From Methanobacteriota archaeon (GTDB taxonomy: Archaea; Undinarchaeota; Undinarchaeia; Undinarchaeales; Undinarchaeaceae), in assembly GCA_002687935.1 (NCBI GenBank), contig NZBN01000002.1, positions 7,394 through 71,393 of the forward strand: DNA of 64,000 bases. The letters are read 5' to 3'. A program made the position numbers and the translations under genes. Of the stretch, positions 32,597-33,902 are shown in pieces. Under the pieces are notes generated by a model that saw only the letters and a list, made by a program, of their open reading frames with translations, had not been told where the DNA came from and did no database searches. Within the stretch, counting starts at the first letter, position 1. Every line of letters starts with the position of its first letter.

Positions 32597-32680
32597 GCCG
32601 AGGTCGCATAATCTGGTATTGCGCTACCCTGGAAAGGTAGTTTCCTTCGGGATGTGTGAGTTCAAATCTCACCCTCGGCG
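32597..32680 (+). tRNA. tRNA-Ser (anticodon GGA)
   Basis: Cloverleaf folded by eye: acceptor GCCGAGG/CCUCGGC. Anticodon loop CUGGAAA gives GGA. Long variable arm. T-loop GUUCAAAUC. Confidence 0.8.
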
Positions 32681-32685
32681 CTTCG

Positions 32686-32696
32686 TTACTTTTTTT
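32686..32696 (+). terminator. Oligo-T tract immediately after the tRNA (archaeal-type terminator)
   Basis: ACTTTTTTTAT follows directly after the tRNA 3' end. Confidence 0.4.
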
Positions 32697-32720
32697 ATAT
32701 GGGGACGTACTAGTTATTTT

Positions 32721-32861
32721 ATGGCAAAAACAGATCCTGTAAAATTAACTTCTTCAATTTTAGAAGCAGTTGATATTGCTTCAGAAAATAATAAAGCTCT
32801 TAATCCTGCTTATAGTGCAATTCCTTTCAATAAACTGTATTTATATACTGTAAGTCTATAG
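32721..32861 (+). CDS. Small hypothetical ORF (46 aa) in an AT-rich islet
   Basis: Starts MAKTDPVKLTSSILEAVDIASENNKAL. The ORF-track entry 32619..32861 runs upstream through the tRNA, which is implausible. Confidence 0.25.
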   Translation: MAKTDPVKLTSSILEAVDIASENNKALNPAYSAIPFNKLYLYTVSL

Positions 32862-32911
32862 CAAATAGGTGGCATTGGCTAAATAGGTCTAAAATATTCC
32901 ACAATTTCGTA

Positions 32912-33436
32912 ATGAGGCACCAGTGGGTACCCATTTACTTTATTCCACATTCGCGCAGTTTCTCGTCCAAGCGTGGCTTTGCCGAATCACGACTTAGAAG
33001 GCGTCTTGAAAAACAGGGCTGGTCTGTCTGGAAAGGTCTCCTGGTTGGTGCTGTACGAATGCAAGATGATTATTCAACTGCAACGGAAAAGTATGAATTA
33101 CTTTCTAAATTTTTAGAAAAACATAGTGCGGAGCTTCTGGAAAAACTCCAATATTATTGTTCTGTTCATTTTGGCTTTCCTGATTTTATCTGTAACAAAG
33201 GTAGGGAATGGAAATTTGTTGAATGTAAGTTGGGCTATGAGCCTCTCAGTGAAAAACAGAAAAAATGTATAATGGAGCTTCAGCTTCTAGGTCTTAATGT
33301 TGAGGTTCATAAACTAGTCAGTAGCCATACAGGAACTCAGTCTGCAATGGTAAATTTAAAAGGAACTGGTAAAATAATAACTCGAAAACAACTAACTCTT
33401 AATGACAGGCTCTTTAGCAGGTGCCAAAACATATAA
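32912..33436 (+). CDS. VRR-NUC domain nuclease (PD-(D/E)xK superfamily); probable real start at the ATG at 33059
   Basis: GFPDFICNKGREWKFVECKLGYEPLSEKQKKCIMELQLLGLNVEV matches the VRR-NUC consensus (G.PD... fVEvK ... LS..Q..w...l...G..vev). Confidence 0.65.
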   Translation: MRHQWVPIYFIPHSRSFSSKRGFAESRLRRRLEKQGWSVWKGLLVGAVRMQDDYSTATEKYELLSKFLEKHSAELLEKLQYYCSVHFGFPDFICNKGREWKFVECKLGYEPLSEKQKKCIMELQLLGLNVEVHKLVSSHTGTQSAMVNLKGTGKIITRKQLTLNDRLFSRCQNI

Positions 33437-33463: not shown

Positions 33464-33625
33464 ATGTTAAAAGAACTAAGGAAAAAATTACAAAATCTTA
33501 GCAAGATAAAGAATTGTCCAGCATGCAGTTCTAAGGATATTACTTATGATTCTAAGGGTAAAGCACATCTCTGCAATGATTGTGGTGTAGATATTCAGGC
33601 TACTATTTCTTCTAAAACTGAGTGA
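33464..33625 (+). CDS. Small zinc-ribbon protein (53 aa; below ORF-track cutoff)
   Basis: Manual translation MLKELRKKLQNLSKIKNCPACSSKDITYDSKGKAHLCNDCGVDIQATISSKTE, with the pattern CPAC-x15-CNDC. Confidence 0.4.
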   Translation: MLKELRKKLQNLSKIKNCPACSSKDITYDSKGKAHLCNDCGVDIQATISSKTE

Positions 33626-33680
33626 TTTTAGGTCCTTTCTATATAGATAAAGTATATAAAGTCCTATGTACTAGGAGATG

Positions 33681-33902
33681 TGCTAGGAGGTGAAGGCAGC
33701 GCAAACCTTCGGGGGTGCGCTTTGAAGTGTTTCGAAAGAAACATGGATGTTGCTGTAAAAAGCAGGTCTTCGCTTTATAGCTCCCATAAAATGCTGGGAG
33801 GTGAAGGCAGTACAATTCTTCGGACTTGTACTCTGAAATATCTTGAAAGGGATATGGATGCTGCTGTAAAAAGCAAGTCTTCACAAAACAGCACTAAATT
33901 TT
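33681..33902 (+). ncRNA. Candidate structured ncRNA made of two tandem 111-nt units, each starting with a GGAGGTGA motif and carrying two hairpins
   Basis: Unit 1 spans 33681-33791 and unit 2 spans 33792-33902. Hairpin A is AGCGCA-AACCUUCGGGGG-UGCGCU versus AGUACAA-UUCUUCGGAC-UUGUACU (UUCG loop). Hairpin B is GUGUUUC-GAAA-GAAACAU versus AUAUCUU-GAAA-GGGAUAU. Compensatory changes preserve the pairing in both hairpins. TATA-like boxes lie at 33640-33656 and a T-tract at 33899-33907. Confidence 0.5.

Follow-up and report, generated by a model that had tools for sequence, protein, structure and literature searches.

A VRR-NUC nuclease gene of a marine Undinarchaeota archaeon and its DPANN family with predicted FAN1-like topology and fusions to family B DNA polymerase

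The nuclease gene, its active site and its start

We analysed a 64,000-nucleotide stretch of contig NZBN01000002.1 (assembly GCA_002687935.1), referred to below as the window, and within it a gene for a small nuclease of the VRR-NUC family at 32912..33436 on the + strand. The original prediction, made from the letters alone, had recognised here a stand-alone VRR-NUC nuclease, and the strings that it quoted (GFPDF, KFVECK, LSEKQKKCIMEL and GLNVEV) are found in this + strand open reading frame (ORF), where the translation holds them as HFGFPDFICNKGREWKFVECKLGYEPLSEKQKKCIMELQLLGLNVEVHKL. VRR_NUC (PF08774) is the only Pfam-A domain found in the 174-aa protein; its score of 31.3 bits (E=2.3e-7) exceeds the gathering cutoff of 23.8, and by this profile match the domain assignment is genuine, far from what chance would give. 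Searches of NCBIfam and PHROGs added no useful match, the best being phrog_93, 'endonuclease' (E=2.8e-4). A search of 5.8 billion proteins recovered 65 relatives, mostly of 150–215 aa, which cover 82–100% of the 174-aa query, and 31 of the 65 make up the alignment, A1, from which conservation was read. The gene and its key positions are:

32912..33436, + strand: VRR-NUC nuclease gene, full length, 174 aa plus stop (ORF list, Pfam PF08774 match, 65 homologues)
32984..32986, + strand: codon of Glu25, first residue of the E-PD-ExK metal-binding signature, upstream of 33059 (at least 90% conserved in A1)
33059..33061, + strand: internal ATG (Met50), the start proposed earlier and rejected here (Pfam match from residue 28; conserved N-terminal 49 residues)
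33179..33184, + strand: Pro90-Asp91, PD motif (invariant in A1; aligns to GLPD of human FAN1)
33221..33229, + strand: Glu104-Cys105-Lys106, ExK motif (Glu104 and Lys106 invariant in A1; aligns to EVK of human FAN1)
33257..33259, + strand: Gln116, the VRR-NUC-specific glutamine (invariant in A1)

The active site of VRR-Nuc domains is an E-PD-ExK motif that coordinates Mg2+ and is stabilised by a conserved Gln, specific to VRR-NUC, which hydrogen-bonds the catalytic Lys (Pennell et al, 2014, PMC4103454). The corresponding residues of the window protein are Glu25, Pro90-Asp91, Glu104-x-Lys106 and Gln116, all invariant or at least 90% conserved among the 31 sequences, and the alignment thereby has Glu25, Asp91, Glu104, Lys106 and Gln116 in place as catalytic residues. 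Invariant columns of A1 include Tyr61, Leu64, Tyr81, Val85, Gly88, Pro90, Asp91, Glu104, Lys106, Gln116 and His133. The 174-aa protein is predicted to be a catalytically competent PD-(D/E)xK nuclease of the VRR-NUC family.

The original prediction had dismissed the first 49 residues of the ORF as probably unreal and favoured a 125-aa protein beginning at 33059; this part of it is contradicted by the conserved N-terminus, the Pfam span and the synonymous bias. The VRR_NUC match extends over residues 28–132 (profile positions 10–111 of 116) and begins 22 residues upstream of Met50. Also upstream of Met50, Pro12, Gly22, Glu25 and R-L-E-K-Q-G-W (residues 31–37) are at least 90% conserved in A1. 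Compared with a 91%-identical relative, codons 1–49 carry 10 synonymous and 4 non-synonymous changes and codons 50–174 carry 29 and 12, respectively; because synonymous changes predominate in both parts, purifying selection acts on the N-terminal 49 residues as it does on the remainder. Since the domain starts upstream of 33059, and since residues 1–49 show both conservation and a coding-type pattern of substitution, the start at 33059 is wrong, and on this evidence the real gene is 32912..33436, encoding 174 aa and not 125 aa. A GGTG lies 9–12 nt upstream of ATG 33059 and two public gene calls of 125 aa from the Joint Genome Institute (JGI; P0003 and P0067) start at Met50, but the Met50 product would lose strand b0, helix a1 with Glu25 and strand b1 (Glu25, a1 and b1 being conserved family-wide), and the substitution pattern in codons 1–49 is of coding type, so that we find the shorter product hardly credible.

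Reading on from the upstream stop, ATG 32912 is the first start codon met, and no other in-frame start precedes the conserved N-terminal residues. In Candidatus (Ca.) Undinarchaeum marinum CTG stands at codon 1 and the gene starts at codon 6, a GTG; set against ATG 32912, this places the start within codons 1–6 in all three Undinarchaeota genomes compared. The 174-aa start corrects an error that is also present in the public 125-aa calls. Public annotation of the gene is inconsistent in general, with 'hypothetical protein' labels, 125-aa JGI calls and a U. marinum gene called from GTG codon 6.

Predicted fold and fusion to family B DNA polymerases

An AlphaFold2 model built with A1 (mean pLDDT 82.4, pTM 0.78) contains the following elements, numbered by residue:

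Residues 5–12: strand b0, extra N-terminal element
Residues 23–34: helix a1, carrying Glu25
Residues 38–41: strand b1
Residues 55–85 (33074..33166, + strand): FAN1-type two-helix insertion between b1 and b2, helices 55–71 and 73–85
Residues 92–96: strand b2, after the PD motif
Residues 99–107: strand b3, carrying ExK
Residues 114–125: helix a2, carrying Gln116
Residues 130–136: strand b4
Residues 142–148 and 154–159: C-terminal beta-hairpin, extra element
Residues 165–172: terminal helix, low confidence

The predicted topology is α-β-[αα]-β-β-α-β with extra elements at both termini. The restriction-endonuclease-like a-b-b-b-a-b core is recognised by Foldseek, which matches the model to FAN1, Hjc and VRR-NUC structures with probability ~1.0. 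The segment between b1 and b2 is ~50 residues long; Tyr61, Leu64, Tyr81 and Val85 within it are invariant in A1 and its amphipathic positions are conserved. In FAN1 domains b1 and b2 are separated by an insertion of two helices, a topology called likely unique to FAN1 and proposed to occlude the dimer interface, whereas bacterial and phage stand-alone VRR-Nuc proteins have an a-b-b-b-a-b-a topology, form dimers and cleave four-way junctions (PMC4103454). In the model, the 174-aa protein has the FAN1-type two-helix topology.

When the A1 profile was compared with 177,635 PDB sequences, the sole match was FAN1 (E=9e-7 to 2e-5), and the three dimeric stand-alone VRR-NUCs of solved structure were not matched even at E<=10. 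In the structural comparison FAN1 was matched with E ~5e-4 and a query coverage (TMq) of 0.41–0.49 over full-length alignments. This is slightly above Hjc (0.36–0.41), viral VRR-NUCs (<=0.40) and the bacterial stand-alone enzyme 4qbl (0.28), which ranks 43rd with 60 columns aligned.

The family is linked to a polymerase by gene fusion. At thresholds of E<=1e-3, E<=1e-10 and E<=1e-30, an exhaustive profile search of 1.84 billion representative proteins yielded 331, 90 and 46 proteins, respectively. Among the best matches are proteins of 505–916 aa in which profile positions 2–173 occupy the extreme C-terminus and a DNA_pol_B domain (PF00136), that of a family B DNA polymerase (PolB), lies N-terminally. 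Of 120 relatives listed for one fused protein, the classification covered the 115 that were newly retrieved: 54 carry the module as a fusion (about 810–906 aa) and most of the others are unfused PolBs of ~660–760 aa, all of them from Woesearchaeota/Nanoarchaeota. At the DNA level, module and PolB share one uninterrupted ORF (820–913 aa) at 18 of 71 species-representative loci; one species has a split form with PolB 3.5 kb upstream of the nuclease. The loci noted for the PolB fusion were L014, L015, L017, L024, L026, L027, L031, L034, L036 and L037, and further L050, L054, L067, L070, L075, L076, L078, L084 and L085.

Because the neighbours of the fused genes are Nop, proteasome, Rpp14 and SBDS genes, the fused polymerase is the cellular PolB; among solved structures its sequence is most similar to archaeal PolBs (5mdn, Thermococcales enzymes). 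The fusion provides a Rosetta-stone link that points to a role in replication or repair. In a distant family member of 246 aa (P0154) the VRR-NUC module is followed by an HRDC domain at the C-terminus, a fusion that likewise points to DNA replication or repair. Among 109 PolBs of the clade (P0077, P0219–P0333) polymerase motif A (DFSSMYP) is invariant and the assigned ExoI and ExoII positions hold no conserved acidic residue, ExoI having been placed by eye and the ExoII region being the only one that HMMER aligned, weakly. The clade, fused and unfused, may be proofreading-deficient.

Motifs resembling the PCNA-interacting (PIP) box accompany the module in both arrangements. The pattern Qxx[LIMV]xx[FYW], in its typical form (E)RQTK[LI]x[DE][FY], occurs at 53 of the 54 fusion junctions, directly before the nuclease module, and near the C-terminus in 40 of the 61 sequences outside the fused class. 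The PIP box of archaeal PolBs has this form and lies at their C-terminus. Stand-alone nucleases carry the pattern at the very N-terminus (MRQTTLLEF) in 32 of 65 cases, and 30 of the 65 homologues have [QE]xx[LIMV]xx[FYW] at the C-terminal position where the window protein has QLTLNDRLF. The PIP-like motifs of the family would be expected to bind PCNA.

Chromosomal setting and family range

The protein of the window occurs in identical form on at least 22 marine metagenome contigs, Tara Oceans included, and is recorded at NCBI as MAF88963.1, 'hypothetical protein [Euryarchaeota archaeon]'. Its nearest named genomes are Ca. Undinarchaeales bin71, at 91% identity, and Ca. Undinarchaeum marinum, at 89%. 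The assignment of the gene to an archaeal chromosome by the original prediction is upheld, the host being a marine archaeon of the Undinarchaeota (DPANN). Homologues at 37–50% identity come from Woesearchaeota/Nanoarchaeia and a few differently labelled metagenome-assembled genomes (MAGs), where they have unrelated housekeeping neighbours; by this sampling of sequences the family is restricted to Undinarchaeota and Woesearchaeota/Nanoarchaeia. DPANN MAGs with the family are often titled 'uncultured Methanosarcinales archaeon', and even Binatia or Acidobacteriota.

Synteny around the nuclease is conserved in the three Undinarchaeota genomes. The shared order on the upstream side is L30, L15, SecY, Adk, EMC3-like, Cmk, Cbf5, methyltransferase, [tRNA-Ser] and VRR-NUC; on the downstream side VRR-NUC is followed by a zinc ribbon, gpmA, VIT1, an oxidoreductase, RtcB and archease. 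The features next to the nuclease in the window are:

32597..32681, + strand: tRNA-Ser(GGA), upstream neighbour (Rfam, ARAGORN)
32837..32911, + strand: conserved upstream block with a TATA-like box and two AAATAGGT boxes (three-genome comparison)
33464..33625, + strand: zinc-ribbon ORF, 53 aa, CxxC...CxxC, 27 nt downstream of the nuclease stop (weak TFIIB match)
33650–33661, + strand: TATA-like, promoter-like element before an RNA array (sequence)
33682–33784, + strand: tandem structured RNA unit 1, ~103 nt (fold, covariation)
33793–33895, + strand: tandem structured RNA unit 2, ~103 nt (fold, covariation)

The phage or mobile-element origin implied by the original prediction does not agree with this setting of conserved synteny and housekeeping neighbours. 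A tblastn search of 50,697 phage records found no match for the nuclease, PADLOC found no defence-system match for it, viral structures matched in Foldseek at the level of the fold only (TMq <=0.40), and the G+C content of the gene (0.35–0.39) is similar to that of its neighbours, with no composition anomaly. We conclude that this is a vertically inherited core chromosomal gene and not a phage-derived one. A relic of an element integrated beside tRNA-Ser might be suspected because the tRNA gene lies 230 nt upstream of the nuclease, the interval between them varies and stand-alone VRR-NUCs are common in phages; however, no integrase or other phage gene lies at the locus, no integrase or att repeat was seen in the variable interval downstream of tRNA-Ser when the window was compared with its relatives, and nuclease and promoter block are syntenic in the three genomes, which makes such an origin very improbable. 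As to the variation itself, bin71 and U. marinum have two extra genes between methyltransferase and nuclease, one for a 132-aa protein of unknown function and one for a flavin reductase (- strand), that are absent from window positions 32682–32836.

Pairing of the nuclease with the upstream methyltransferase as a restriction-modification system was considered and rejected: the methyltransferase is a conserved partner of Cbf5, and it is separated from the nuclease by the tRNA and, in the relatives, by the two further genes as well. The zinc-ribbon ORF downstream matches a TFIIB zinc-ribbon profile with 24.7 bits against a cutoff of 29, has likewise sub-threshold matches to Lar and Elf1 and a partial match to PADLOC PDC-S64 (E=2.4e-6), and is labelled 'Elf1' in one source. 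It is kept downstream in the Undinarchaeota relatives, and in Undinarchaeota it is probably co-transcribed with the nuclease. It is absent beside the Woesearchaeal homologues, and for this reason we rejected it as an obligatory partner.

The 75 nt at 32837–32911 are almost invariant among the three genomes, whereas the coding sequences differ by ~10%. Within the block ~45 nt show no substitution at all, although the flanking gene content differs. Similarity of the three genomes starts exactly at an archaeal TATA-like box, TTTATATA (32840–32847), and the block contains two AAATAGGT boxes 18 nt apart. It is probably the promoter and 5' leader, and may comprise a promoter together with an operator or leader element.

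Two RNA units, 78% identical to each other, lie in the interval that separates the zinc-ribbon ORF from the end of gpmA. In each, a long closing helix and three hairpins (UUCG tetraloop, GAAA tetraloop and UAAAAA loop) form a four-way junction. On the + strand the folds reach z-scores of -5.1 and -3.9, as against -2.2 and -2.5 on the - strand. Among six copies taken from the three Undinarchaeota genomes 99.5% of cells pair, with compensatory changes in 7 of 32 pairs, and tandem arrays of 2, 3 or 4 units are present on related metagenome contigs. Rfam gave no family match for the units at either threshold. From fold and covariation, 33682–33895 is a conserved tandem structured RNA without an Rfam family; one public record has a spurious 145-aa ORF called over the region.

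Candidate functions and relation to known nucleases

Taken together with the predicted fold, the polymerase fusion and the PIP-like motifs suggest as the best reading a structure-specific nuclease, for flaps or branches, that acts with PolB and PCNA; we lean towards this reading, with somewhat more belief than doubt. The protein would act at the replication or repair machinery, together with PolB and probably with PCNA, as a structure-specific DNA endonuclease that depends on Mg2+. Its substrates would be asymmetric branched DNA such as 5' flaps, nicks or gaps, or stalled-fork intermediates. Because the two-helix insertion is reported to block dimerisation in FAN1, the protein would more likely act as a monomer than as a symmetric Holliday-junction resolvase.

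Several observations weigh against this reading. The monomeric state and the flap specificity are both derived from the predicted topology only, and the alignment of the A1 profile with FAN1 covers just b2 to b4, leaving the insertion outside the aligned part. No PolB gene was found in the examined parts of the window. The window protein has no N-terminal PIP-like motif, and none is encoded in frame between the upstream stop and the ATG; its C-terminus has a degenerate form, QLTLNDRLF, with one extra residue before the aromatic. By comparison with its relatives, the window copy appears to have lost the N-terminal motif and to keep the degenerate C-terminal one. Finally, the best Foldseek match in the PDB is not FAN1 but the dimeric resolvase Hjc of A. 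fulgidus (2wcw, E=3.5e-4, TMq 0.40).

This last match, followed by other Hjc and Hje structures, is also the first argument for the main rival, a homodimeric Holliday-junction resolvase equivalent to Hjc and to the bacterial and phage stand-alone VRR-NUCs that would introduce paired nicks. The nuclease is small and single-domain, and stand-alone VRR-Nuc proteins have been shown to be dimeric junction-resolving enzymes (PMC4103454). On the other hand, the predicted b1–b2 insertion resembles the one proposed to occlude the dimer interface of FAN1, and the sequence profile matches FAN1 and not the solved dimeric stand-alone enzymes. In many genomes the module is attached to PolB as a single copy, and Pfam Hjc (PF01870) does not match the 174-aa protein even at E<=1. 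We consider a resolvase of this kind rather unlikely, although it is the alternative that fares best.

A second rival is a PCNA-tethered mismatch or lesion endonuclease, an analogue of EndoMS/NucS, that would compensate for the degenerate-looking 3'-5' exonuclease motifs of the PolB clade. EndoMS/NucS is a PD-(D/E)xK nuclease with a C-terminal PIP box. In keeping with such a role, PIP-like motifs flank the nuclease module and the 109 clade PolBs combine an invariant motif A with the lack of a conserved acidic residue at ExoI and ExoII. However, those exonuclease positions carry the uncertainty of a placement by eye and of a weak alignment, no similarity to NucS was seen, and characterised VRR-NUC enzymes recognise branched DNA and not mismatches. 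This alternative appears improbable.

The structure-specific nuclease acting with PolB and PCNA can be given a more particular form, a 'mini-FAN1': an archaeal, PCNA-tethered, PolB-coupled flap or branch nuclease with the two-helix insertion of FAN1, joined in Woesearchaeota to a PolB that seems to lack proofreading and encoded as a protein of its own in Undinarchaeota. In this complete form the proposal is speculative and we regard it as doubtful. If it were true, these archaea would have a Pol I-like arrangement of polymerase and nuclease assembled from unrelated folds, and it would suggest that the FAN1-type domain has an archaeal relative associated with replication and is not solely a derivative of bacterial selfish elements.

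The VRR-NUC label itself is routine, and NCBI names close relatives 'VRR-NUC domain-containing protein'. In the searchable literature we found no paper linking VRR-NUC with DPANN archaea or with a cellular PolB, and no description of the DPANN-restricted family, its predicted FAN1-type topology or its PolB fusion; the only co-mention of VRR-NUC and PolB concerns separate genes of a dinoflagellate virus. At the level of the family, the fusion and the FAN1-like topology are of greater interest than the window gene itself. They offer a concrete and testable link between a structure-specific nuclease and a replicative polymerase in genome-reduced archaea, and a small, tractable protein with which to ask if the b1–b2 insertion alone turns a VRR-NUC junction resolvase into a flap nuclease.

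Among known systems, Hjc and Hje (PF01870; 2WCW, 1GEF, 1OB8) share with the DPANN protein the PD-(D/E)xK core fold, in which Hjc is the closest by Foldseek, and are likewise encoded by archaeal chromosomal genes. The DPANN protein differs from them in its VRR-NUC Gln, large b1–b2 insertion, extra terminal elements and lack of a Pfam Hjc match. The stand-alone VRR-Nuc proteins (stNUC, saNUC, psNUC; 4QBL) belong to the same Pfam family, have the same catalytic signature and consist of a single domain without partners; unlike the DPANN family, they occur in phage or mobile contexts, and the DPANN profile does not match them. Dimers of the stNUC/psNUC type have no helix or a short one (8–11 residues) between b1 and b2, where the DPANN protein has ~50 residues and two helices.

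With FAN1 (PDB 4RI8, 4RY3, 9EOA) the DPANN family shares the E-PD-ExK signature with its Gln and, in its predicted structure, the two helices between b1 and b2 in an a-b-a-a-b-b-a-b order; FAN1 has been solved with PCNA (9eoa), and the DPANN family carries PIP-like motifs. FAN1 also has UBZ, SAP and TPR domains, whereas the 174-aa protein has no other domain and adds an N-terminal strand, a C-terminal beta-hairpin and a terminal helix, and the fusion partner of the DPANN module, where there is one, is PolB. Domains of the FAN1 type are characterised as monomeric, with 5' flap endonuclease and 5'-3' exonuclease activities and without resolution of Holliday junctions. An orthologue of full-length FAN1 was rejected, as the protein has only 174 aa and Pfam finds VRR_NUC only, with no SAP or TPR. 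The 5' nuclease of bacterial DNA polymerase I is comparable as a functional analogy only: in the fused Woesearchaeal proteins, as in Pol I, a polymerase and a nuclease predicted to be structure-specific are joined on one polypeptide. The two nucleases are nevertheless unrelated, one having a FEN/PIN-like fold and the other a PD-(D/E)xK fold, and the Pol I nuclease is N-terminal whereas the DPANN nuclease is C-terminal in the fusions and encoded by a separate gene in the window.

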